A stretch of 64,000 bases of DNA, taken from NCBI GenBank assembly GCA_951406725.2, contig OX597828.1:61256001-61320000 (forward strand), given 5' to 3'. Below, one piece after another: positions 1 to 44,022 of the stretch. The DNA is from Octopus vulgaris. Its lineage: Eukaryota. Position 1 is the first letter of the stretch, and each line of letters begins with the position of its first letter. A program made the translations under genes and the position numbers. Below the pieces are notes generated by a model that had not been told where the DNA came from, did not search any database, and saw only the letters and a list, made by a program, of their open reading frames with translations.

Positions 1-183
1 AACCCCAAAGAATCCCTCTCAACACATGTCTATGATGCTCCCCCACTACTTCTGCTCGTGATCAGAGATGCACATATCGTCAGCCACCAAGGGACATGCT
101 CAACTGGTTAAGGTCAAACAACTGACAAGCAAATCTGTGGTATTGAGCAGAATATTTGCTGTAGCCCATCTTATATACCAAGA

Positions 184-185
<2 letters not shown>
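1..185 (-). mobile_element. Copy 1 (5'-truncated, runs off window) of a non-coding (TAA)n-embedded retroposon
   Basis: Closely matches ~26790-26972 and the reverse complement of ~63174-63330; abuts (TTA)n. Confidence 0.75.
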
Positions 186-2009
<1,824 letters not shown>

Positions 2010-2010
<1 letters not shown>

Positions 2011-5000
2011 AATTAAAAAAATTACATAGAAATCACCCTATCACGTACAGTTTATTCTCAAAAGCAATCATTGTATTTTACCATTATGACCGAGTTTGAC
2101 TATTGTCTTGTTTTAATAGCCTAAAACAGTATAATTACTAGGTATGATTTTAAAAACAGGCATCTTGCATCGTTTGGACAGCTTCAGCTACACAGAAAAG
2201 AGCCTGCATCACTGTAACATCAGTCACCCGTAAGCAGAGAGTAGAGAAAGATGCGCTTTACAAGGTCACGTTACTTAAGATAAAATGTTCTTATTTCAGT
2301 TATTTCTTAATGCCGTTTTTTTTTCAATGTATATATGCTACATACATTGCTTTATTGCATCATGTTATATTACAGTGCTTCTTTAATATTATGTATACAC
2401 TTAGATAGTAAATCAAATATATGCTGTTAAAAATGTTCCCTTCTCCTTTCTTTACAGACCTCCACATCATTTGAAGCAAGGATGTTTTCTAGATGTGCAA
2501 CAAGCCTGGATAACTTTTGTTACATTTCTGGCGCGTTTATGACCAAAAGAAAAACATTAATAAATTTGTCAAAAATCTTACTATGCCTACTTTGAAGGGA
2601 AATTAGGCGCCCAAGATAAAAAGTGGGCTCTTCATAAGGCCTGCTCAATTTGCGCTGAAGAACTAAGACAATGGAGAAAGTGCACAGAGAAGTTTTTTTA
2701 AATTTTGGGGTTTCCAAAAAATCACAGTGATAACTACTACTTTTCTTTACATAAGGAGCAGGGACACAATTCGGAGAGTGGGAAAACATTGTTTATTCAA
2801 ATCCCTCATCTGCATTACGACCTGTTACCCATGGACCAAACGTTCCAGTTCCATCCCCACCAGGAAACCATGAAGACTTACATTTGAGTTGTGAGGAGTC
2901 AGAAGGCAGAAATAGTAAATGATCTAGTGGGGAACTGAAGCTCAGAAAGGATTCATCAGAGATATTAGGTTTCAGACTTAGATCCAAGAGTCTTTTAGCT
3001 CCTCCAGCATTATTCTATTAATATCGTAACGGCGTAAAAATAATTTGTTCCTTATATCACTCAAGAAAATGATTCATTTTATTGTACAAAATATGATTCG
3101 TTTTTATTGTTGATCCGAAAACGGTTCTTTTGCCACCTCTACTTGGCCTCATGAAGTAAATTGTAAAAGCTTTGCCACAGAATAAAGATGGCTTCAAAAA
3201 TATACGTAGCAAGTTTTCAGTTCTATAAGATGCCAAAGCCGAAAAGGGTGTATTTGTAAGACAGATATAAAGAAACTCGCCAAGGATGAAAATGTTGAAA
3301 ACTCTCTTGGTGATTTTGAAAAGATGCATGGATTTGTTTCAAAGATGCGATGAAGAACAAGGATCCAAACTACAAAGACATAGTGGGAAGAATGCTGGCA
3401 AAGTTCGAAAATCTTATAATAATTCTGCTTGTCATTGCATTACTCAGCCCGTTGGTAACATTTTCACGTGATCAGAGAAAAAGAGGTAGAGAGAAAAAGA
3501 GGATGAGTGAAGCGTCCATGACGTGAGGTAGAGTGAATATAATTGCAACGCTTTCCTGTGATTAGTTGAAGAAAAAGGGGAAACAAAAGAGAGAGGAGAA
3601 GAGGATAAGGCGAAGAGTGAGGCAGAAAGGGAGACAGAAAGCTAAAGAGGAAGAGAGAAAAGACGGAGAGAGAAGCGTCCATAACATATGTTAGGGGGTA
3701 AGTAATATTAAGTGGTTAAAAAAGTTAGTTGAATGTAGAGGAGAGTTAGAGATGTAATTTTAGTAGGGGGGTGATGTTCTGATGGTGAGATTAAAGAAAA
3801 GCAGAGAGAGAGAGAGAGAGAGAGAGAAAGAAAGAAAGCAAGAAAGAAAGAAAGAAAAAAAGAGACAGATGATGTTGATGGTAACTTGTATTTAATTGTT
3901 TTTTTATATCACCCATCACTTAACGCATGCGCATTCTAAACTTAGAAAGAAACCAGTTTCCTATTCGCCTGCCATATGCAATGGCTATCAATAAATCACA
4001 AGGGCAGACATTTGAGAAAGTGGGGCTATTCTTGCCTGAGCCTGTATTCAGCCACAGTCAGCTCTATGTTGCATCCTCAAGGGCTCGCAAATTATCTGAC
4101 GTGAGAGTTAAAGTGATCAATACTGAGAAACAAGGGAAAAGAAGGAGAACTTACACGAAGAACATAGTCGGCAAAGAAATATTGGATTGAAAGGTGTACG
4201 CAAATTGAAATGTGTATTAGCTCTGACCCATCGCCTTGGCTTAGAAGATACCAACGATGTGGCTTTTAGAATATGTCATGTTAAATTTTTACCTCTGTGA
4301 AAGTGTGACCCTTCTATTTTACATATAAAATCATTTTTTTCTTTTTTACTATAGAATTTTTGTTTTCTAGATATGAAAAGTTTGAAATGTAATTTTTTCT
4401 GTTTATTGGAAAAAATGGAAAAATAAATGTGAATATTTATTTTATGTGTGGTGTATACTGAGTCTATAAAATTGCGCATAAAGTATACATATTATGTATA
4501 TCGTATTTCAATTTCCTTCACTTATCTATGAATAGCAGACGAGCGACTATCTTTTAATACAGACAACACAGGCTACGCTTTCAGGCTTTTGGGATAAAGT
4601 CTTCAGGAACAACCCAATAGGGTCCCGCTGGTGAGCATTAAAGTTTATTTCCTACAAGCTCATTCTGTAAAATCTGGAGGATCTACGTAAGGAGCAGGGG
4701 TAAGATTTAATTAAGACAAGAAGATATGAGGGAAGATGGAATATCGAGATATTGATCCACCAGGAAACCATGAAGGCATACATAGATGGAAGGAGCCTTT
4801 GTAAAAATCTATTTTCTCGCCTTTCAATTGTATTTGTACCGTATTATTTTCCTATCTAAAGTGTCATATTTATTTTCACTTGTTTCAATTTGTCCTACCA
4901 TATATGGAGTTACCTACAAATTATGGTATATTCTATAATTAGATTGTGAAAAAAACTTAGGTAATGGGAGATAGCTATTTTGATATTTCGAATTAGGAAC

Positions 5001-8001: not shown

Positions 8002-8073
8002 CGGTTACTGATGAGAAGTTGCCTAGTAAATTATTTTATTTACTAAAAAATTTGAAACCTATAGGTATAACCG
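8002..8073 (+). ncRNA. Type I hammerhead ribozyme, intact core
   Basis: CGGTTA-CTGATGA-[stem II with TAGTAAAT/ATTTACTA]-GAAA-CCTATAGG-TA^TAACCG; 6-bp stem I. Confidence 0.85.
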
Positions 8074-8870: not shown

Positions 8871-11800
8871 AACGCGACCGCCAAACACCATCACCACCAC
8901 CGCTATCATCATCATCATCACGTTGATATTTCTTTAAGCTTAGCAAAACATATTTTCCGACTTAAGTAAATAATTATTTGTGAAAAATCAACGTGTCTTG
9001 ACAGAAAATATAACGTGGCGAGAGTTGGATGTCGGCAAACGATATGTGATGGGAATGATAATTATCAGAGTGGTATTCCATGTTTTGGGCAAGTTATTTT
9101 AGAGTCTACCAAATATGGAAGGAATTAAAAACAACGCTTTTACCGTTTGTTTGGGGTGATCATACACACGCGTGCGCGCGCGTATACATACATAAATACA
9201 CGCATACACACACATATACAAACACATGCACAAACTTATTCAACCACACGGACAAGCATATGTATTATGTGGGTAGGTAGGTAAGTAGGTAGATAGAGTG
9301 GTGGGTAGGTAGGTAGGTACTTCTGTGAAAGATGAGTAGTCCATGTATTTACAAGAATAAATAACATTAGAGAATCTATTATGTAATGAAGAGTTGTGAA
9401 GGCAAAGAATGGTTAATTATTCTTTTAGACATAACTTACACTTGCCGATGTTTGCATTGTATGGGGGAGCTTCGCTTACTATGGGCCAGGATAGAGTGTA
9501 TGAAATATTTTGAGATTTTATGTTGTGTATATACGTTGCTAAGGAGACTGATAATATAGAATTTGGATTGGAGGAAGAATTCCTGTGTGAACGGTAGTGG
9601 TGCTTGAAATCTACGGTGCCACCGATATATACCCTTGCTTGGTGGGAGTGTTGTTTTATAACACGGCACTTGTAGATTACATTTTTGCGTAGGCAGGAGC
9701 CTCCAAGTGGGCATACTTGGGAAACCTGACAATTGCAAGTTTTCCTACCTGCTCGATGGTTGGGATTTACTGCTAGCGAGGTTGAGCTCCGTTAGTTCAT
9801 TGTTACTGGGGGAGAACCTGAAGTGAAATTTGTATTTGTATTGGATTGTGAGGTGATATTGCAGCTAGTATTTGTTGTTGCGTCGGTAGGATCGTGGGAT
9901 GATGGTTTGAGTCTGGTATTATTTAATTGAGGGGGGTTACTAAGGGTTGTGTTATTGCTACTATGTGGGCTAATTTGGGATACAGTATGAGATTTTAGTT
10001 ATTCTGAGGATTGGTATTGGAATTCGCAATTGCTCGAGGAGGTGATTATGGATCCTAAACTATGTGTGCTGGAGTAGAAGATTTTCGCGGATGATTTGTT
10101 AAAGATGGCATAGTATTTATGCTGTGGTGGAAAATTAAATTTTAGGATTTTGAAGTAGAGTTTAGGTAGAGATTTAATTTGGAGAGAGAAAGGTGGTGCG
10201 ACCCATTAGATTTCTCTCTTCCTGACCTTAGAATGTTTAGAATGTGTGGTTGTAGTAAGTTTATCAGGAGGGGGTGCTTGTAGTTGTTATAGGCTAGGGG
10301 GCGACCAGTGGGGTAGCCAAATGCGATGTGTAGGGTTTTTTTTTAGAGTTGTTGGGTTACTGTAGAGTGGAAATAGTATTAGTAGATTCAGGGTTAGTAT
10401 TAGGAAAGAAATGTGTTATTTTAGTTTTAATCTTAGTATTGGGGATACAATAGATTTTTTCGCTGAAGCCACTTATTTGGAGGGTCTGATTATAATAACG
10501 GGCGTGAGTGTTAAAAATTTCTACGTTAACAGGTAAGTTAGAGATTCTGATAGATATGACTATGACAACGCTCTTAAGGATAAATTTAGGGTGATTAGAG
10601 AGGACATTTATATATTGTAAAGATTGGTTGGGTTTATGGAAACAGTGATATAGATGTGTGTTTAAGTCGAGAATAACATCTAAGGAATTTGCCACCTTAG
10701 TGTCAATTTCGAATTAAATACTCAGGTTATGATTTTTAAAAAAAGTGTGTAGGGCTTTCTTGGTGCATTCCACTGATGATCGAGATAATCCAATCGCTGA
10801 AAGGAGTGCATCATTCCTGTATAGTCTACCGGAGAGGTTGGAGAAGTATTGTTTAATTTGAGAGAGAAGGAATAGGCCAACTAGGTCAGTAACCTGGGCT
10901 GAGTCCGATACGCTTATGGTTACATTGAAGAAATCCGTAGATGAGTTGCGGGTCCAATTATTATCCTTAAAGTGAATTAGAGTCTTCATCGCAGCCAGGA
11001 TGATATTGATGTCAGATCGGGAGATGGGAATATATTTTCGGGTGAACACTAGGGCTTTATTTAAGAAGATTGGTGGTATTGATGAACAATAATTTGGGAT
11101 GTCAAATTGATGAAAATGGATATGTTGTTTATCATGAAGAGAGTGAAACCAAGTGATAACGTCTCCTGTGAAATTCCAGAGCGGAAGCTTAACGTTAATC
11201 CTAACAAGTGGTAGAATACGGTCAATAATACATTTACTAATTCGATCTAAGTCGGATCTAGAGGAGCAGATGAGTCTAATGGAAGGCTTAGTGTAGAGAT
11301 GAGTCTAATGGAAGTCTTAGAGTAGAGGCGAATCTAATGTAAGGCTTAGAGTAGAAGTTGAGTTTGTAGTCCTTTAGGGTAAAGTGGGGGAATATGGTTC
11401 AGTTCTGGTTAGTAAATTTAAATCGGCGATAAGCTTACACTGGATGTTGTTAATCTCATTAAGGGCATTTTTATGTGTATGTTTTTAATTTGTGTTTAGT
11501 TCCTTTGATATGAAGTTAGTATACGTTTCCAAGGGAAGGGAGTAAAGATTGCCGGTTTTGTCAGAAGAGAGTGCAGGTGTAGTGAAGTCCTTATTTTAGA
11601 TGTAATTTTGGATAGTAATTTTTGGAAGAAATTAGTATAATTAGAGAATTACTATAATTAGATCTTTCACAAAATTAGCCAATGCAGGGTTTGGGGGTGA
11701 GCTGTTGTGGGACTTTAGGTTGTAAGTGTCCTTTGCATTAGAATGTGCAGGATAGTTAGATTTTAGGTCATAGTGTAGGGCTTTCCACCTCATTCGAGTG

Positions 11801-12181
11801 ATAAAATTATTAATCTTCTGTAGTAATAGTTCCATATTTAGCTCCCTTGGTGGGATTGGAATATTTTTTGTAGGTATACCCCAAAATTGCTTAGCCATAA
11901 GTGCTATCTATAAGTAATGCTCGACCGAGCAAAAGATATATAGTTTATAGACGAGAAACAGATGTTCTCTGTATAGAATACACTTCATGGTGCTCAAAAG
12001 ATTTAAACTTGAACTGGTAGAGGAGTAAATGTAAGAACAAGCAAGTTAGGCAAGTCAATATACAGAAAATATTAAATACACTTGATACAAAAAACGTACA
12101 TATGTTTACATATAAAAATGTCCGGTTTACACAATAGAAATGATATCAGGAATTAAAGGGGTCGAATAAGAGTTTTACGAG

Positions 12182-14888: not shown

Positions 14889-14940
<52 letters not shown>

Positions 14941-14941
<1 letters not shown>

Positions 14942-15160
14942 CTCTTTACTCTCTTTTACTCTTTTACTTGTTTCAGTCATTTGACTGCAGCCATGCTGGA
15001 GCACCGCCTTTAGTCGAGCAAAATCGACCCCGGGACTTATTCTTTGTAAGCCCAGTACTTATTCTATCGATCTCTTTTGCCCAACCGCTATGTGACGGGG
15101 ACGTAAACACACCAGCATCGGTTGTCAAGCAATGCTAGGGGGACAAACACAGACACACAA

Positions 15161-15192
<32 letters not shown>

Positions 15193-15368
15193 TATACATA
15201 TATACGACGGGCTTCTTTCAGTTTCCGTCTACCAAATCCACTCACAAGGCATTGGTCGGCCCGGGGCTATAGCAGAAGACACTTGCCCAAGATGCCACGC
15301 AGTGGGACTGAACCCGGAACCATGTGGCTGGTTAGCAAGCTACTTACCACACAGCCACTCCTGCGCCT
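14941..15368 (-). mobile_element. Full-length tRNA-derived SINE, the dominant family in the window
   Basis: Head GGCGCAGGAGTGGCTGTGTGGT (A box)..GGTTCAGTCCC (B box), internal TA/TG tract, (GTAAAAGA)-like tail. Partial copies near 16094, 20405, 22845, 30890, 45960, 53265. Confidence 0.9.
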
Positions 15369-15700
15369 ATATATATATACATACTACATACGTACATACG
15401 CGCACGTGTACATACATACATACATACATACATACATACATACATACATACATACATAGAAAACATCACTTTGCGATACCAGTGTAAAAGATATCCCATG
15501 CATCATCAAACGTCTACATGTTAATACCTACTCCTTTGGCTGCTATTTCTAAAATTTTCGATATGTGGTCAAGCAACTTGTTGCAAAACCCTTATTGTTA
15601 TAATTATATAAGTTTTTACCGAATATGGTCCTTTTCTATACCGAAATACTACTAGGTGAAATTTGTTGATTTTATTAAAAAAATTATCTTTCACCCTATA

Positions 15701-21738: not shown

Positions 21739-21758
21739 TATATGTATAAATACATATA

Positions 21759-22139
21759 TACTCTTTTACTCTTTTACTTGTTTCAGTCATTTGACTGTGG
21801 CCATGCTGGAGCATCACCTTTAGTCGAGCAAATCGACCCCGGGACTTATTCTTTGTAAGCTCAGTACTTATTCTATCGGTCTCTTTTGCCGAACCGTTAA
21901 GTGACGGGGAGGTAAACACCAGCATCGGTTGTCAAGCAATGCTAGGGGGACAAACACACTCACACAAACACACACACACATACATAAATATATATACATA
22001 TATACGACGGGCTTCTTTCAGTTTCCGTCTACCGAATCCACTCACAAGGCTTTGGTCGGCCCGAGGCTATAGTAGAAGACACTTGCCCAAGGTGTCACGT
22101 CTTCTACTATAGCCTCGGGCCGACCAAAGCCTTGAGTGG
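21759..22139 (-). mobile_element. Dominant-family SINE with head replaced by an inverted duplication
   Basis: Matches 14941-15300; 22038-22080 is inverted at 22099-22139. Confidence 0.85.
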
Positions 22140-29467: not shown

Positions 29468-29560
29468 AGTCTGATACGTGTTTCGATCGCATTAACTGCA
29501 TATTGTTGCATATTTACATGCAGCAATTTATGCATTATTTGTTCGATCTCTTCAGGGTAT
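29468..29560 (-). ncRNA. Degenerate hammerhead
   Basis: Minus strand CTGAAGA-GATCG...CGATC-GAAA-CACGTA-TC; stem II good, stems I and III damaged. Confidence 0.55.
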
Positions 29561-29659: not shown

Positions 29660-29790
29660 TTCTTTTACTTGTTTCAGTCATTTGACTACAGCCATGCTGG
29701 AGCGTCGCCTTTAGTCGAACAAATCGATCCCTGTTATTATGTTTTGTAAGCATCGGTGTTCAAGCGATGGTGGGGAGATAAACAGATACA

Positions 29791-29821
<31 letters not shown>

Positions 29822-29998
29822 GTATATATATATATATATACGACGGGCTTCTTTCAGTTTCTGTCTACTAAATCCACTCACAAGGATTTAGTCGGCCCGA
29901 TGCTATAGTAGACGACACAAGCCCAAGATGCCACACAGTGGAACTGAACCCGGAACCATGTGGTTGGTAAGTAAGCTACTTACCACACAGCCACTCCT
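29660..29998 (-). mobile_element. Dominant-family SINE with internal deletion
   Basis: Homology to 14941-15368. Confidence 0.85.
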
Positions 29999-31057: not shown

Positions 31058-34000
31058 TCTTATGATAATCTTATGATAAAAGGCAGATTTTCTCTGCCTG
31101 TTCCCATGTTTCTTTTTAATACAATTCTACAATATAGAATTTCTTCAATTGGAATTTACCTATGATTTTTCCAAGTAGATTCGATTGGGTCATGGCATAA
31201 AAAGTTTTTTTTTAATTTGACCCCCAATTAAGCAAAAATTCGAGAAAACTCAATATTTTGCAAGTGTGAAACTATCAAAGTGAAAGCATTATATAACAGG
31301 GATGAGCCATTAATACTGGTCATCCATTTTGCTAGAGGAAGATCCGCTATGGTCTTATATGCTACACCACTGTTTTTTAATTCATATTAATCAAATTAAT
31401 ATTCAATTTTTCACCCTTATTATGTGTGTGTATTAGCAATACGTATAAAATTGCATCAATGACTTGAACTTGAATAAGTGGTTTCACATAAATGGGGATA
31501 AATTAAAAGGTTTGTTGTTATTATTATTACTGTTTGACTATTGTAATCACGTTTGTTGGTTCCTCGTCAGGGAAACGTTGTTGTGTTGCATTTGTTAAAT
31601 AATTGTAAACCGTAACCCTCCCCCTTTCGGAGAAGGGGCTTTGGTTACTGTTTAAAAATTGAATTGTGTCCCTGTTTGGGGAAATTGACAATATTTTCAC
31701 CGTCTTTACGGAAGCATTTTTGTTAAAATGCCTTCGATAGAAGAAAGTCCAAAAATGAATTACGCTGCAGCCGTACACTTCTATACAAGAGGGAGGACAA
31801 GATCCAATTGATCGAAATTGCAAGAGACGGAATTGCAATTCCAGTCTGGTATATATTTTGAGTATTGTTATCACTAGCGATATCAAGATATAACTTTGTA
31901 TTTTGTATTTTATGTGTAGATGTATATATATAGATGTACATGTAATATGTACACATATATATATACACATATATACATGCATAATATATCTACCCATACA
32001 CACATACGCACACACACACACACATACATAGGGGCAGGTGTGGCTGTGTGGTAACAAATTACGTTCGAAGATACTGTATTTGATATGGGCGGTAGTGCCT
32101 TGCCGGTCTATGGCCTACCTTCAACAAACCGGGAAGGCACAAACACTCTGTCTTCACATTTGCTGCGTGAGACATGATTTAATGTTGACGAGCTTGCCGA
32201 CAATGAACCAAAGCTCCTTCCAGAACAGAAGTTCGCTTACAACTCCGTTGTTAATTCAGTCCGGGCCAAAGCTGGGGGGATTTTTTTTCCTGGACGCTCC
32301 TGGGGGCACTGGGAAAACTTTTGTCAACAAATTAATATTGGCTGAGATTAGGCGAACACAAGGCATTGCCCTAGCTGTGGCATCACCTGGAATTGCGGTT
32401 ACTTTGTTGCCAGGCGGCAGGAAAGCTTACTCCACCTTCAAGCTCCCGCTCGACTTAGCGAAGACTGAGACACCAACTTGCAACATCAGTAACAGCTGCG
32501 ATCAGGCAGAAGTCTTCAGACAATGCAAGCTTATCGTTTGGGATGAATGCACGATGGCCCACAGAGGTGCTCTTGAGGCACTAGATAGATCTCTCAGAGA
32601 CATCAAACACTCTTCAGCTCCCATGGGAGGCATAACACTTCTTCTTTCAGGGGATTTCCGACAAACACTTCTCGTTATTTCCAAAGGGACTAGAGCTGAT
32701 GCAGTAAGTGCGTGTCTTAAGTCATCCACATTGTGGCCACTGGTGAAGACTCTCAAACTTCACACCAATATGCGTGCTCATATGCGACGTGATATCACAT
32801 CAGCAGCATTTTCTCACACCCTCCTTGCACTTGACGAAGGCAAAATACCAGGGGATGAAAATGATAATATTGCCATCGATTCCATTTGTACCATTGTTAA
32901 AACGCCTTCTGATCTCAGAGATGCAGTGTTCCCAGATCTACAAGCTAATTATCAGAATATGGATTGGATTGGCCAAAGGGCTATTCTGGCCCCGAGGAAT
33001 AAAACTGTTCACCATATTAATGATGAAATGCTAAAACTCATTGCTGGGGATGTCTATGCATATAAGTCTATCGATACAACTCCTGACCCAGAGGACGTCA
33101 TCAACTATCCAATAGAGGTACTCAATTCCTTTGAGCCCCCTGGACTATCACCACACATTCTCAAACTTAAAGTTGGTTCCCCTATAATGCTCATTAGAAA
33201 TTTGGTTCCCCCAAAACAATGCAATGGCACACGTTTGATCGTTAAGTCCTTATCTCCCAATCTGATTGAGGCCACCATTATCACAGGGTGCGGTCGAGGC
33301 AACGTTGTGCTCATACCTAGGATGCATCTTTTCCCATCAGGAGCAAACCTACCTTTCATATTTCGGAGGTCCCAGTTCCCAGTAAGGCCATGTTTCGCAA
33401 TGTCAATTAACAAAGCGCAGGGTCAAACACTGTCTGTGGCGGGAATACATTTGGGAGAGCCATATTTCTCTCATGGTCAGCTTTATGTTGCCTGCTCGCG
33501 TGTCGGCAGCAACACTGATGCTTTCGCATTCGTTCCACAACGAAAAACAAAAAAAAAAAACATTGTGTACAAGGAGGTTTTATAGGATTACTACGTTTCA
33601 TCATTTTCGAACACGTTAGTATTTCACTTACATACGACTCTCTTTTATGATGGCATTTACATTTTTAGGCGTTTCATGACATTAATTCACACTTAACCAA
33701 CACCTGTCCTTCGCTCACCTCTATTTCTATCCATTCATCATCAAAACACCAGCCTCATCTTCTATATCCAACGTACATGACACATCTACCCCCTACATCT
33801 ACACTCTCACTGTTAAAGTTTACATAAGCGACAACACGATCGCAACATACACTTTGGAAACTAAGCAACAGATCATTTTATACAACACATTTAATCATAA
33901 CGCCCATCAATGAAAACATCTCCACCACTGTGTTGTGATTTATCTATTCAACACCACTACAGTCTTGCCGGTCTGACATATGGTGAGTAGATGCTATTGT

Positions 34001-34415: not shown

Positions 34416-34453
<38 letters not shown>

Positions 34454-34456
<3 letters not shown>

Positions 34457-34650
34457 TCTTTTACTATTTTACTTGTTTCAGTCATTTGACTGCGGCCATG
34501 CTGGAGCACCGCCTTTAGTCGAGCAAATCGACCCCGGAACTTATTCTTTCTAAGCCCAGTACTTATTCTATCGGTCTCTTTTGCCGAACCGCTAAGTGAC
34601 GGGGACGTAAACACACCAGCATCGGTTGTCAGGCAATGTTAGGGGGACAA

Positions 34651-34681
<31 letters not shown>

Positions 34682-34684
34682 CAC

Positions 34685-34757
<73 letters not shown>

Positions 34758-34948
34758 CATATACATATATACATATACATATATACGATGGGCTTCTTTC
34801 AGTTTCTGTCTACCAAATCCACTCACAAGGCTTTGGTCGGCCTGAGGCTATAGTAGAAGACACTTGCCCAAGGTGCCACGCAGTGGGACTGAACCCGGAA
34901 CTATGTGATTCGTAAGCAATCTACTTATCTCACAGCCACTTTTACGCC
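34454..34948 (-). mobile_element. Full-length dominant-family SINE
   Basis: Homology to 14941-15368. Confidence 0.9.
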
Positions 34949-35049
34949 TATAGTTGTTCTCCTTATTTAAAAAATATTTTAGTAGGACGGCCCACACCCG
35001 AGACAGAGGCAGAAATCTCATGTAGGGGTAACACAACATATCCACTGAA

Positions 35050-36060
35050 CGGCTACTTTAACACGAGGCAGATGTAACAATAGTAGAACCAAATGGGCAA
35101 CCAAACGTGCGAAAGTACGTGGGAGAAACTAAAAGCCCCTTCAGAACCCGCTATAGCAACCACAAGTCCTCTTTCAACATTCAGGAGATATGTAATGCCA
35201 CAACCCTACCCAAACACGTATGGCCATTGAAAAATAGTGCCACCGAGTACAACATAAAGTGGGAGATTCCAGAGAAATGTAAAGAGTACTTCAATAGCAG
35301 CTGGAAGTGCAGTGTGTGTCATTCTCGCAGCAGTGTGTGTGTGTGTGTGTTATTCAATAGCAGCAGAAAGTGCAGATTATGCCTGGCTGAGAATAGCAGA
35401 ACTGAAAATTTTAATACTTGCCCACATGAAAATGATATACATCCTATCATACCTTCATGCCCCATCATGACTATAATAATCATTTACTCAACTTCAGCCC
35501 TTCACTAATACCTGGGAATCCAACAGTGTTTGACCAGAAGATACACAAATGCACCTACCAACAAACACACGCCCCAGCACGGCGGCCACCCACTCGCCCC
35601 AGCACTGCGGCCACCACGAATTTAAGCAAAACATAATAAGGAAGCACACAAACGAACACAGCTGTGTGTGCCAACACCACCCACAAAGGTTATACATATA
35701 GTACCACTACACACATTCCATTTCCACATGAACACCAACCTTAAAAACTTGTTTTGGTACCAAGGGACATAATTTAATCCCCTGCTCAATTCGCTTCAAC
35801 ACCTTTTCACAGCAACCACAAACCGGATGTATCTATTCACCTCTAACAATAGAGAGCAGTCGCCATATTTCATTCTATATCGGCTACCTCTGATGAGCGC
35901 ATGGTTACATAATCTGATTGTTACCTAACACTCCATCGAATCCCTAGTGCGAAACCGATGGGTAAGATCGGCCGTAATGTATATATAATACTCCACACTT
36001 TGACTAATATAGCTACTCTACTGGGATATACGAGAGTATATTTCCTGACTTATGAAAGCT
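35050..36060 (+). mobile_element. Naiad-type PLE 3' end (GIY-YIG and pLTR)
   Basis: KYVGETKSPFRTRYSNHKSSF..ATTLPKHVW.LK..YNIKWEI..KC.LCLAE followed by a hammerhead. Confidence 0.85.
35881..35974 (+). ncRNA. Type I hammerhead ribozyme, intact core
   Basis: CGGCTACCT-CTGATGA-GCGC...GTGC-GAAA-CC-GATG-GG-TA^AGATCGGCCG. Confidence 0.8.
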
Positions 36061-37073
36061 TAGAGGCTTACACACACACACATATACACACATACACGCA
36101 TAAATACATGTACTCACACTCATATATATATGCTTATTTCGGTTAATGACTTATTCAGGAATATAGCAACACTAGCGCTCCTGAGGGTAATATTCTCTGG
36201 GAACGCACAAAAGGCCTTTTTAGAGTTATTTACTTTGAATTATTATCTCATACCTGATTAGCCTGTTATTACGTAACATGCTTCACGATTTTAGTATACA
36301 TACCTTATTAGTATTTCAGCCTATGTTTTATATACTCTGGGAGCGCCTTTCGAAAGAAGCCCGTCGTATATATATATTATTTAGTTATTGAAGATATGTA
36401 TTTCATTATTAGATTATAACTTAGCCAACGAGATATGTAGATCGTTAAATAGTTATACGGTTCTTTTAAGATAAGTTATACGTTTATAATTTGCTTTTTA
36501 ATCTTTAATTTTTTAATATATTTCATAAATATATTATATTAATATTTGATATTTACGTAAGTAATAATGGACTAATTAATTTTAATCCTTGCCCACATGA
36601 AAATGATATACATCCTATCATACCTGCATGCCCCATCATGACTATAAATCTAATGATTACATATATTCTGATCTTCCAGTAGAGAAAGTTCCTTTCTAAG
36701 GATAATTTTAACTCAAGTAAGGGCTAATTGAGGTAGTATATTTTATACCCTGCTAGTGTACTGGTTTTATCCTCAAGTATTATTTCTTGATGTGCATATA
36801 AATACCACGAGTTTTCCATCATAAATAGTCGTTATGTTATTTTTGCATTATCTGAAATGGAATACCCACGAATCTATTGATTGAAATCCCAATAACTGAA
36901 CTATTATTAATTTCTATTATTATATATTTTGTATATTTATATATAAATATATCATAATCATGATCTCACTGTACGATATGCTGGTATACCCGGTATATAT
37001 TCTCCATATTAAAATGCATGTAATGCTAAAGGGTGTGTACCTGATCGATTTAGAAATTCGTTTTCCGACATTA

Positions 37074-37142
<69 letters not shown>

Positions 37143-37163
37143 AATTATGTATATATATACAAA

Positions 37164-37674
37164 AAGGACACAGGGAAAAATGTGTCAAGGCCATCAGGAG
37201 GCGTTCGATGCTTCCTAGGGCTATACAGCGGTGGTGTACCCCCTACTGTCACGTTCTTGTTAGATTGACAGTATACAACCATTCTATCGCCCCACCACCG
37301 TACATGTCTCTACGAGAGATTTAGAAATTCAATATTTCTTATTTTGATAATCAGTGAATAGACTTCACTGAATATAGATATATACAATTGCGAAGTCGAG
37401 GCAAATATCACCGGCTGACCGGTGTCTGCTACTCTAGGCCGATGAAGGACAACGATCCTGAAACACGTGTCCCTAGATGCAGTTCCGGCAGCCGGGGGTG
37501 TTTGTCTCCCCTTCGTAAATGTATATAAGGACACAGGGAAAATGTGTCAAGGCCATCAGGAGGCGTTCGATGCTTCCTAGGGCTATACAGCGGTGGTATA
37601 CCCCTACTGTCACGTTCTTGTTAGATTGACAGTATACAACCATTCTATCGCCCCACCACCGTACATGTCTCTAC
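37164..37674 (+). mobile_element. Retrozyme-like element: ~150-bp direct repeats around a hammerhead-bearing spacer
   Basis: 37164-37313 repeats at 37527-37674 with 3 differences seen; period 361-363; no credible ORF. Confidence 0.75.
37433..37477 (+). ncRNA. Minimal type I hammerhead, one core substitution (CCGATGA)
   Basis: TCTAGG-CCGATGA-AGGA-CAACGA-TCCT-GAAA-CACGTG-TC^CCTAGA. Confidence 0.8.
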
Positions 37675-40165
37675 ATGCGTGTGTGACAGGCCATTTAGTT
37701 GAACTCCCATTAAAATCAATATTTTTCATTCGATTTCGTTCACACTTGGCATATACATCATTTATGTTCTAGAGATGGTACTACTCTTCAGATTATTCAC
37801 TTATGGCGTAATATGGTGTTATGGGGCTTCAGGTTTAAGAAAAAGTTCCATTCCTGGGATTCGTGTCTAATCTGGACAAGAGAGGTAACTCTTTGCGAAG
37901 TAATATTCAGAAATTGATTGTCTCTCTTATATTTGTATCTCTTAAACACTTTTGCATAGTACGTAAATAAACAATATGGATAATCGTTGCTTTAAGTGAA
38001 CATAATGAGTAACGCTACCCCTACTGGACAAGACGAAAGCATCTTTTCATAGTAGGTAGAGCGATCACCCTCCCACTACACCTGCCAATTACAACGGCGG
38101 GCTTCTTCTCTTGAAAGACTTGGTTATGGCAAGTGGAGATCAACGATTGGACGCTTACTCTCTCAACACTCCAGACAGAAATGAAGACGCCTGTCCTAAT
38201 CGCCTTATCCACAGAGAAACATCCTACAACATCTACAAACGCAACCAGTACATTGCTGACAAGACTCTTCTGAATTCCGATCAAAGCTGACGTATGCAAT
38301 TTTGTCCTCAGAAACATCTACACACACACTGGCGGAATCATCTTCTTCGACGCACCCGGTGCAACTGGAAAAACATTCCCCCTGAATCTTCTTCTTGCGA
38401 AGTTGTGGCGTAATGGTGACCTTGCTATTGTTGTTGCTACCTCAGAAATAGCCTCGACTCTTCTCGACAGCAGATGAACAGCAGACTCTACCTTCAAATT
38501 GCCTTTCAACGTAACACATCAAGAAAACCCAACGAGCCACATAATGCATTCCTCGGACGAAGCGATAATTTTGAAAAAGTGCAAACTCATTGTTTGGGAT
38601 GAAGCAACTATGCCCCATAAATGTTCCCTACAAGCACTTTACACCACAATGAGAGACCTTAGATCGAACAACATTCTTGGAGGTGCGACACACTCTGCCT
38701 ATTAAACCCAAAGGAACACTGCTCATAAACTTAATACCTGCCTTTAAAAGTCCCTCCTTTGATTGCATGTCCAATTGAAACAACTCACCATCAACATGGG
38801 ATGACGCCTACAGACTGGTCAGTCTACAACCCAGTTTTCGGAAATGCTCCTTAAGATCGGCAATGGACAAATTACGTCCGACAACAATGGATAGATTCAC
38901 ACTACTGCCACTGGCCACATTGTCTTCATCCCGTTTACCCAAATCTAACAACGGAATACATAGAACCAGATTGGCGTTTCAACAGGGCCGTTCTTGCCCC
39001 TACAACTGCAGCTGTCAACATTCTTAACTACGACTTACTGAGTCAGGTACCTTCTGAAGAATGTTGTTACAGACCAGTTGACACCGTTACTGACCTCGAT
39101 CAGGTTACACACTTTCCAACACAATTTCTCAACTCCCAACATCCTCCAGGACTCCCTCCCTATGAACTTCACTTAAAATCGGTTGCCCTGTAATCCTCCT
39201 ACGCAATCTAAATGCCCCTACACTACAAGCAACAGAACTTGCCTTGTGGTCAAACACAATGATGGACCACGTCATCAAATCCCAAATTATCACGGGACAA
39301 GGCAAAAACGATATCGTTTTCATTCCGAAAATTCCGCTAACCCCAACAGACTGCTCCTACCCTATGCAGAGACTTCAGTTCCCTCTCAAATTCAGCTTCG
39401 CCATGACAATTAGCAAAGCACAAGGTCAATCACTGAAAGTTGTCGGATTAGACCTTCGAACGTTGTACTTGAACAGTTCTACGTCAGTTGTTCCAGAGTT
39501 GGCCAGCCAGACAACTTACTCATCTATGCGCCTGAAGGAAAAACCAAAAATGTTGTCTACAAAGCAGCCCTACAGTAGTTATTCCTCTACTGCAATCTTC
39601 ACATCTATGCCAAACTGTAGCTGTTAGCAATCAGACTTCCTGTAAGCATTCCATTGATATTTTGCTTCATTTCCCCGATTGCTGTTAACAGTACATTACC
39701 TTCAATGACCCTTCTTACTTCATGCACACTGTTCGCTCATAAGCATGCTCTGATATTTATTTTTCTATTTGTGTGTTTGCTATAAATGTTTGCTTTTCTT
39801 TATCATACATGGCTTTCATTGAAAAAAAAAAGCTTCAATGCAGTTGTGTCAGGCATTACGAGTAAAATAACTACATGCTACAAAACACTTCAGGTGAGAT
39901 AAAGGATCCCTAATGCCTACTGCAATTGTGATCTCATTTTATGGGCTTTCATTTATTACTAACTGCCAAATTTGCGTTCAAAAAACTTTATTCATTACCT
40001 AGGTTGTTTAATACCATATAAACTGCTAACGAAAATGGCAATTAAACATTTTGCGTTTATCAACTTGAAACGACTTCTAGCTGCGGGCTAATTCAAATTA
40101 AACCGTCCACAGGAGTGCACCATTATAAGAAATTACACCGTCCAAAGGACGGGTGCATTTGCTAG
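37675..40165 (+). mobile_element. Decayed Helitron (PIF1 pseudogene ~38320-39580)
   Basis: FFDAPGATGKTF, LIVWDEATM, QFPLKFSFAMTISKAQGQSL; 3' hairpin CCGTCC-AAA-GGACGG then CTAG|T at 40162-40166. Confidence 0.85.
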
Positions 40166-43289: not shown

Positions 43290-43720
43290 CACGGCGTACC
43301 TGCAGGAATTTAATGGCTTGCATCTCTGGTTCAAAGCATGTTATTCCTGGAACAGGATGAAGAACTTTTCTGAGAGGCAAAGATTACATTTCATAGGTCT
43401 TTTATAAGAACCATGTCTGTATGATAATGTGTCATTCTCTTTCAATTGTTTTGCAAGACTAGTTGCTGTCCTATTCTCGGGTATCGGAAAGAATTTCGGT
43501 GGGAATAGAATCGAGTCTTGAACGAATTTTCCGAAGAAGTATAACACGAAAGTTATTACAAACAATTACAGTGTCGAATCTAATCTGAGTAACTGCGACT
43601 TCAAAGATAAGACTTGCTGTCCGTTGGAAGGTAAATATTTTTAAAAAAGGAATTGTTTATAGAGCTAAAGTGCAAGTAGATAGATCACAAGAATATAAAA
43701 CATACACAGGGTCTTCGTGT
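43290..43720. mobile_element. Rearranged Naiad-type GIY-YIG fragments on opposite strands
   Basis: Minus: ATSLAK.LKEN..KCNLCLSEKFFIL (43341-43480); plus: CCPLEGK..KGIVYRAKV..YKTYTGSS (43590-43716). Confidence 0.7.
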
Positions 43721-43918
43721 ATGTTTGTGTTTGATCCCTCGCCATTGCTTGACAACCAATGCTGGTGTGTTTATCTCCCTGTAAATCAGAGGTTCGGCAA
43801 AAGACACCGATAGAATAAGTACTAGTACTGGGGTCAATTTATTCGACTATAACCCTTTAAGGCGGTGCTCCAACATCGCCGCTGTCAGATGACTGAAATA
43901 ATTAAAAGAATAAAAGAA
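43720..43918 (+). mobile_element. Dominant-family SINE 3' half
   Basis: gcttgacaacc..gatagaataagtac..ggcggtgctcc..gactgaaa..(aaaagaat)n. Confidence 0.85.
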
Positions 43919-43942
43919 TATACATAATACATACATACATAC

Positions 43943-44022
<80 letters not shown>

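Follow-up and report, generated by a model that had tools for sequence, protein, structure and literature searches.

A multi-copy hammerhead repeat of probable non-LTR retrozyme type in Octopus vulgaris

Near the middle of the window (the whole stretch of 64,000 nucleotides of Octopus vulgaris contig OX597828.1 analysed here), two nearly identical direct repeats enclose a short interior that carries a hammerhead ribozyme motif. The question raised by this locus is what kind of element it represents, and how such an arrangement would have been produced and inserted. An earlier note, made from the letters alone, had described it as A (150 bp)-B (about 213 bp)-A with near-identical A copies and a unit of about 362 nt, and this layout was borne out: A1 and A2 align with one mismatch and two one-base gaps (98% identity), B is 213 bp long, and the unit, with a GC content of 45.7%, has a period of 361-363 nt. 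The features of the focal copy (37164-37674) and its surroundings are as follows.

37077..37142, no strand assigned: (AT)20(TG)13.5 microsatellite and likely insertion target region, ending 21 bases before A1
37164..37313, plus strand: A1, upstream partial unit of 150 bp, 98% identical to A2
37314..37526, plus strand: B, single-copy part of the 361-363-nt unit, 213 bp, containing the hammerhead
37314..37344, plus strand: candidate Penelope-type 'tail', the first 28-31 nt of B; three other copies stop at its end
37379..37527, plus strand: long imperfect hairpin extending helix I, with the hammerhead at its tip (from the helix list of the fold prediction)
37433..37477, plus strand: type I hammerhead, with helix I of 6 bp, helix II of 4 bp with a 6-nt loop, and helix III of 2 bp with a palindromic tetraloop
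37439..37445, plus strand: hammerhead core CCGATGA, with the U4C change at 37440
37527..37674, plus strand: A2, 148 bp, the 3' part of the full unit; the focal copy stops at 37674 without the tail

The view that the repeat contains no credible reading frame was also upheld, as the longest ATG-started frames of the unit read head to tail comprise 36 aa on the plus strand and 56 aa on the minus strand, and the unit lacks the frame for reverse transcriptase (RT) and GIY-YIG endonuclease that an autonomous Penelope-like element would carry between its pseudo-LTRs. The claim that the element begins at a TA/TG tract is correct in that the tract lies upstream, but the tract ends at 37142 and is separated from the start of A1 by 21 AT-rich bases. 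Just upstream of the microsatellite, 13 bases (37047-37059) match the start of B (37317-37329) exactly, which may be due to chance. A tRNA-derived unit was rejected (ARAGORN finds 0 genes), and a Pol III promoter is not claimed: A contains one B-box-like word and the unit no A box, with 0.14 expected per unit by chance, and this word loses a letter in 15-92% of the family depth.

The hammerhead reported at 37433-37477 was confirmed at the level of its architecture, with helices I-III and the GAAA/UH elements in place. Helix I is formed by TCTAGG (37433-38) and CCTAGA (37472-77), helix II by AGGA and TCCT around the loop CAACGA, followed by GAAA, and helix III by AC and GT around ACGT, and the predicted cut falls between 37471 and 37472. 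The helix III region, ACACGTGT, is self-complementary, and helix III does not form alone. A descriptor allowing up to one mismatch in the core and requiring a 4-bp helix II and a 6-bp helix I matched a single site on the two strands of the 64-kb window, namely 37433-37477, and none in 200 dinucleotide shuffles. The motif was missed by Rfam, which returned 0 matches over the window at the gathering score and, at E values up to 10, 19 weak matches in 37000-37800, none of them a hammerhead. In exact pattern scans, neither viral nor metagenome contigs yielded a locus. Canonical metazoan type I motifs have been described with a helix I of 6 bp, a helix II of 4 bp and a helix III of 1-2 bp with a palindromic loop, for which dimerisation is needed, and the minimal hammerheads of Penelope pseudo-LTRs with a longer helix II (PMC4209133). 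Judged from its sequence, the focal hammerhead matches in helix sizes the former description and not the long-helix-II minimal motifs.

The unit is predicted to be strongly folded. On the hammerhead strand the fold z-score was -8.1 to -8.5, versus -4.8 to -7.0 on the other strand, and none of 100 shuffles was as stable under any setting. The 361-363-nt monomer is predicted to be 65% paired, and the fold of 37400-37520 alone gave a z-score of -4.5, equalled by none of 200 shuffles. In the circular monomer, the active hammerhead fold is predicted to cost 2.7 kcal/mol over the minimum, which would be in line with the freely folding ribozymes described for most metazoan retrozyme circles (PMC7229834).

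A one-off local duplication, which the earlier note had set against its own reading, combined with a chance hammerhead-like motif might be suspected because the unit has no second copy elsewhere in the 64-kb window and Rfam finds no hammerhead in it. Its probability is negligible: apart from the shuffled controls and the fold z-score of about -8, the reading is refuted by hundreds of variant contigs with both junctions from independent studies. The stretch or part of it was present in 20 of the 24 listed public runs, with at least half of its words in 9 runs; these runs belong to 11 studies and 5 organism labels, and none is on record as RNA. Contigs of 4 of the 20 runs were placed on one unit plus its 3' flank (37314-38000), with 977 placed for run X3 and 976 for run X8, the two large runs. 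The summed contig depth over the unit in X3 ranged from 1,729 to 74,527, compared with 20.9 for the contig identical to the flank; summed depth is no copy number, and the plain ratio of 83-3,566, or of 3-115 if each contig is inflated by the maximal 31-fold, is safely read as a family copy level of tens to hundreds or more.

The joint between the end of A and the start of B was present in all four runs as a go-back joint in several sequence variants, and the B-to-A junction is present inside the stretch itself. The unit is thus closed on itself at both junctions in more than the focal locus. The repeat is a multi-copy, widespread family whose unit is continuous head to tail. The short contigs of the four runs cannot separate tandem arrays from 1.x-mers, and no locus with two hammerheads was seen among them. 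The 3' flank of the focal copy consists of two other repeated pieces (37705-37796 and 37866-37934), whose depth in X3 and X8 greatly exceeds that of a single copy and between which joints skip 89-128 bases. At 37682-37704, no exact contig of the focal locus was evident in X3 or X8, a hole that in itself proves nothing, and a polymorphic insertion is not claimed on this basis.

The ends of the other copies bear on how the family is inserted. In each of the four runs, family depth increases between 37383 and 37658 (Spearman 0.86-0.93), has its maximum in A2, and remains elevated over 37314-37359 before it drops. Graph fragmentation and sequence divergence in 37360-37405 may both contribute to this gradient, and because of family structure the four runs do not count as independent. 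The A-to-B depth ratio was 3.4-4.5 in the three runs for which it was computed; a ratio near 1 would be expected of long arrays, and one near 2 of a fixed A-B-A. Among 24 of the 316 loose-end rows, all three long 3' exits lie within 4 nt, at 37341, 37342 and 37344, so that the 3'-end cluster rests on three contigs; each continues into 236-255 unrelated letters, representing three different AT-rich flanks. The long 5' entries in the same set scatter (37538, 37620 and 37626), and the 3' end of the focal copy, at 37674, lies 28-31 nt earlier than the cluster. Taken together, the ends of the other copies appear polar, clustered at the 3' side and scattered at the 5' side, and not freely permuted.

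These ends also decide most of what can be said of the A repeats as true LTRs. A miniature LTR element of the TRIM type, with fixed ends, would account for near-identical 150-bp direct repeats flanking a short non-coding interior, but the A repeats show no TG..CA ends, and neither a primer-binding site nor a purine tract adjoins them; no clear target-site duplication was found, both ends matching over 3-4 bases only, TAC(A). Other copies end elsewhere, and the A-to-B depth ratio is not the expected 2. This interpretation is largely refuted by the variable ends and is very improbable. The preference in the earlier note for circular permutation over an LTR design was accordingly right in rejecting the LTR, but the displayed ends are polar instead of freely permuted.

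The end pattern resembles, by analogy, a Penelope 'tail' with 5' truncation more than it does freely permuted ends. Penelope-like elements have been described with 5' truncation, partial tandems forming pseudo-LTRs, an optional tail of 30-40 bp and a bias towards microsatellites (PMC8557442). Reverse transcription by such elements has been reported to initiate internally at two adjacent sites and on AT-rich targets, the tail corresponding to the distance between the two starts (PMC11167929). We infer that the same internal-initiation mechanism may have operated on the octopus unit. The greater-than-unit copy, which the earlier note took for cDNA of a small circular RNA, could also be an ordinary partial-tandem (pseudo-LTR) product of Penelope-type insertion, for which a linear head-to-tail RNA could serve as template.

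Penelope-type sequences do occur in the window. A decayed Penelope-type RT lies on the minus strand at 10453-11877 (E value of 1e-76 to P0001), its only homologue among 1,002 candidates being an Argonauta hians protein with 44% identity; the decayed element to which it belongs spans 9342-11877 (minus strand) and comprises the RT and an endonuclease-like frame. About 1.7 kb upstream of the unit, a plus-strand fragment at 35062-35508, which we take to be endonuclease-like from its motifs, is followed by a hammerhead-like motif at 35890. Residues encoded by 35062-35505 match the other Penelope remnant weakly (E value of 0.25), no homologue was found at an E value of 0.001 among 40 candidates, and Pfam recognises neither of the two Penelope fragments of the window. 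The segment 35062-36070 (plus strand) combines this fragment with a 3' region, and 70 bases of the C-terminal coding part recur, 97% identical, at 36578-36647, 1,171 bases further on. Five more hammerhead-like motifs with canonical CTGANGA...GAAA cores were found in the window, at 8008 (plus), 16656 (minus), 29555 (minus), 35890 (plus) and 51292 (plus); four have long helix II regions, several have a palindromic helix III, and the helix III letters of the motif at 29555 are nearly identical to those of the focal hammerhead. These five are probably Penelope pseudo-LTR remnants. Other repeats of the window include Helitron-type PIF1 helicase frames, at 32032-33585 (plus strand; an open stretch of 517 aa, Pfam PIF1 E value of 8e-55) and, decayed, at about 38000-39627 (plus strand), and a compound SINE-microsatellite repeat with copies at 14913-15371, 21739-22099, 29749-29998, 34419-34952 and 43718-43998 that share about 75-91% identity.

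With such remnants at 10453-11877 and 1.7 kb from the unit, the family might be the non-coding end, or pseudo-LTR region, of an autonomous Penelope-like element, in which case A-B-A would be an internally deleted or rearranged copy and the motif an ordinary pseudo-LTR ribozyme. The polarity and tail-like ends are Penelope hallmarks, retrozymes and pseudo-LTRs have been reported to share sequence in Xenopus (bioRxiv 10.64898/2026.07.22.740005), and with 24 of 316 loose-end rows seen, a branch leading into coding sequence may have been missed. Yet in many copies both junctions join unit to unit, the unit contains no coding frame, the 24 rows show no common exit into unrelated sequence, and the helix sizes are of the retrozyme type, versus the long helix II in four of the five other motifs. 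Moreover, the unit does not align to the local Penelope 3' regions, as local alignment on both strands with the five such regions of the window yielded only gappy low scores. We consider this origin unlikely. The possibility raised in the earlier note that all copies are attached to a Penelope-like reading frame with fixed ends found no backing either, since there is no sign of attachment to a coding frame and other copies end elsewhere. The lack of apparent sequence kinship between the unit and the Penelope 3' regions of the window also leaves a partner element without a counterpart there, and it is counted against the explanation that we prefer below.

The core of the hammerhead is its most unusual part. 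Its sequence departs from the canonical consensus C3 U4 G5 A6 N7 G8 A9 (as given in PMC3088659) by a C at position 4 (37440), and the earlier note had suggested that this copy, with CCGATGA, may be inactive. The core is indeed altered, but the C is probably the majority letter of the family, and in a viroid a naturally occurring U4C hammerhead (Ambros and Flores 1998, as cited in PMC3088659) was reported to be much weaker in vitro yet sufficient in vivo. The evidence on the family comes from the best-supported 40 of 119 rows of a difference table, 16 of which lie inside the unit; the rows are apparently ordered by the largest share reached in a single run, the lowest share shown being 43%. Although covered by all four runs, position 37440 does not appear in these 40 rows. 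If the ranking holds, T at 37440 stays under about 43% in every run, which leaves C as the prevailing letter. On this indirect evidence, U4C is probably carried by most of the family rather than being a private lesion. Core mutants were rejected by the filter used in PMC3088659.

Among the 16 top differences in the unit, 9 fall at unpaired sites, 4 keep a pair (three of them turning G-U into A-U) and 3 would disrupt one if the partner stayed unaltered; the differences are unphased, and the excess at unpaired sites has a p value of about 0.06. Helices I and II contain none of the best 40 of 119 differences. In helix III, one inserted G accounts for 17% of the depth in X3 and 21% in X8, and loose ends of runs X8 and X10 show a variant in which three pairs close a tetraloop. 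The intact helices I and II and this second subfamily, with its longer and apparently self-sufficient helix III, suggest selection on the fold.

Whether this ribozyme still processes RNA separates our preferred explanation from another one, in which the family spreads from linear transcripts only (for example A-B-A copies or short tandems, with internal initiation), the ribozyme being a weakened relic and no circular RNA being formed. Family contigs occur in runs X10 and X18, which are guessed to be RNA, several of them as fragments within longer unrelated sequence; some extend across the predicted cut, as would be expected equally of circles, of uncut precursor and of DNA. In comparison with a neighbouring repeat, the unit shows no enrichment there (0.00078 versus 0.00084 for X10/X3, and 0.0057 versus 0.0062 for X18/X3), a poor measure from runs only guessed to be RNA but one that does not speak for abundant RNA; this agrees with linear spread, as does U4C if it is indeed in the majority. 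Mutations of the hammerhead left insertion by a Penelope protein in vitro unaffected, with uncut RNA as the main substrate (PMC11167929), and 8 of 9 predicted Xenopus retrozyme dimers were reported without cleavage (bioRxiv 10.64898/2026.07.22.740005). However, the apparent selection on the fold outlined above does not suit a relic, and mussel, coral and axolotl units of like design yield circles (PMC7229834). We regard linear-only spread as rather unlikely; it departs from our preferred explanation in the processing step only. As the focal locus holds a single ribozyme, a monomer circle cannot be excised from it. RT-PCR across 37471/37472, which the earlier note had proposed, cannot discriminate, since both genomic DNA and uncut precursor run uninterrupted through this joint.

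Thus, the explanation that we prefer, with a probability of roughly 0.7, is that the focal locus is a 1.4-unit copy of a multi-copy non-coding hammerhead repeat, likely of the non-autonomous non-LTR retrozyme type and likely inserted by a Penelope-like RT and endonuclease. According to this explanation, a plus-strand family RNA, either head-to-tail or circular, would be bound by a Penelope-type protein, which would nick AT-rich or microsatellite DNA. Reverse transcription would have two preferred internal starting sites, separated by about 30 nt: the end of A (as in the focal copy) and a point about 30 nt into B (as in other copies). Copying would run 5'-ward and usually stop early, most family DNA being the 3' part of A. 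In the focal copy, it would have run through one full unit and a further 150 nt, with A1 representing a pseudo-LTR from a 5'-truncated second round. At tandem loci, the hammerhead would cut multimeric transcripts into monomers, which a host ligase would close; cleavage would be favoured in a dimer that pairs through the palindromic helix III, and would probably be slow owing to U4C. Retrozymes have been regarded as non-autonomous Penelope derivatives (bioRxiv 10.64898/2026.07.22.740005), and the Octopus vulgaris repeat annotation of 2026 lists 31 recently active Penelope-like families (PMC13282606).

Compared with described systems, the octopus unit shares with animal non-LTR retrozymes (Cervera and de la Pena 2020, PMC7229834; Li, Clavereau and Pollet 2026, bioRxiv 10.64898/2026.07.22.740005) a 150-450-bp unit, a GC content below 50% and the lack of protein, LTR, primer-binding site and purine tract, together with a type I hammerhead that is predicted here to fold freely in a strongly self-paired RNA, many variant copies and coexisting Penelope-like elements. 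The closest described size class is that of the 350-390-bp units of Mytilus galloprovincialis (PMC7229834). At the level of sequence, the unit has the features of an animal non-LTR retrozyme, and the class proposed in the earlier note is right: 361-363 nt, 45.7% GC, a type I hammerhead, non-coding, multi-copy and without LTR design. Unlike described animal retrozymes, it has a U4C core that is probably family-wide and copy ends that appear polar, clustering like a tail at the 3' side. Li et al. 2026 count a locus as active only if it contains at least two consecutive units, each with a complete hammerhead, and they reported cleavage in 1 of 9 Xenopus dimers (bioRxiv 10.64898/2026.07.22.740005); with one hammerhead in 1.4 units, the focal locus belongs to the 'monomer' and not to the 'active' class of Li, Clavereau and Pollet 2026, an assignment made from sequence.

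With endonuclease-bearing Penelope-like elements (PMC4209133; PMC8557442; PMC11167929), the unit shares partial-tandem direct repeats and a type I hammerhead with palindromic helix III, and apparently also 5' truncation, preferred 3' ends about 30 nt apart and AT-rich or microsatellite targets; it differs from them in having no reading frame, a hammerhead outside the repeated part of the focal copy, and a 4-bp helix II, beside a 6-bp helix I, in place of a long helix II. The satellite-2 hammerheads of newt and axolotl (PMC7229834; PMC6155905) are similar in their unit of about 330-350 bp, weak helix III and palindromic tetraloop, with dimer cutting expected, but they have a canonical core, and their arrays, monomers and circles were demonstrated by experiment. 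The core change is identical to that of the natural viroid U4C hammerhead (PMC3088659), whereas the octopus motif is a genomic type I hammerhead in a high-copy animal repeat. In contrast to LTR retrozymes and TRIMs, the unit has neither true LTRs nor a clear 4-6-bp target-site duplication, nor a type III hammerhead in an LTR. No report of a cephalopod retrozyme was found in the literature searched, which largely excluded subscription papers, and 'hammerhead' and 'retrozyme' gave no match in the main text of the 2026 Octopus vulgaris repeat annotation (PMC13282606).

The family would extend the animal retrozyme class to octopods, the focal locus itself being an ordinary single copy, and a family-wide U4C core, if true, would be an unusual natural variant that is skipped by strict-core searches. 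The dependence of animal retrozymes on Penelope-like elements is a published hypothesis that has so far been drawn from co-occurrence and sequence kinship, not from insertion anatomy; if the clustered 3' ends and the 30-nt tail hold, the insertion signature would name the mobilising machinery. A broader reading, which we offer only tentatively, is that of a high-copy octopod family spreading with a detuned ribozyme, in which U4C is the normal core, helix III subfamilies are either palindromic and dimer-dependent or of 3 bp and self-sufficient, and the copies bear the signature of Penelope internal initiation. If this is true, slow cleavage may have been selected to keep greater-than-unit templates, and the family would show directly, from genomic copies, by what means animal retrozymes are mobilised.
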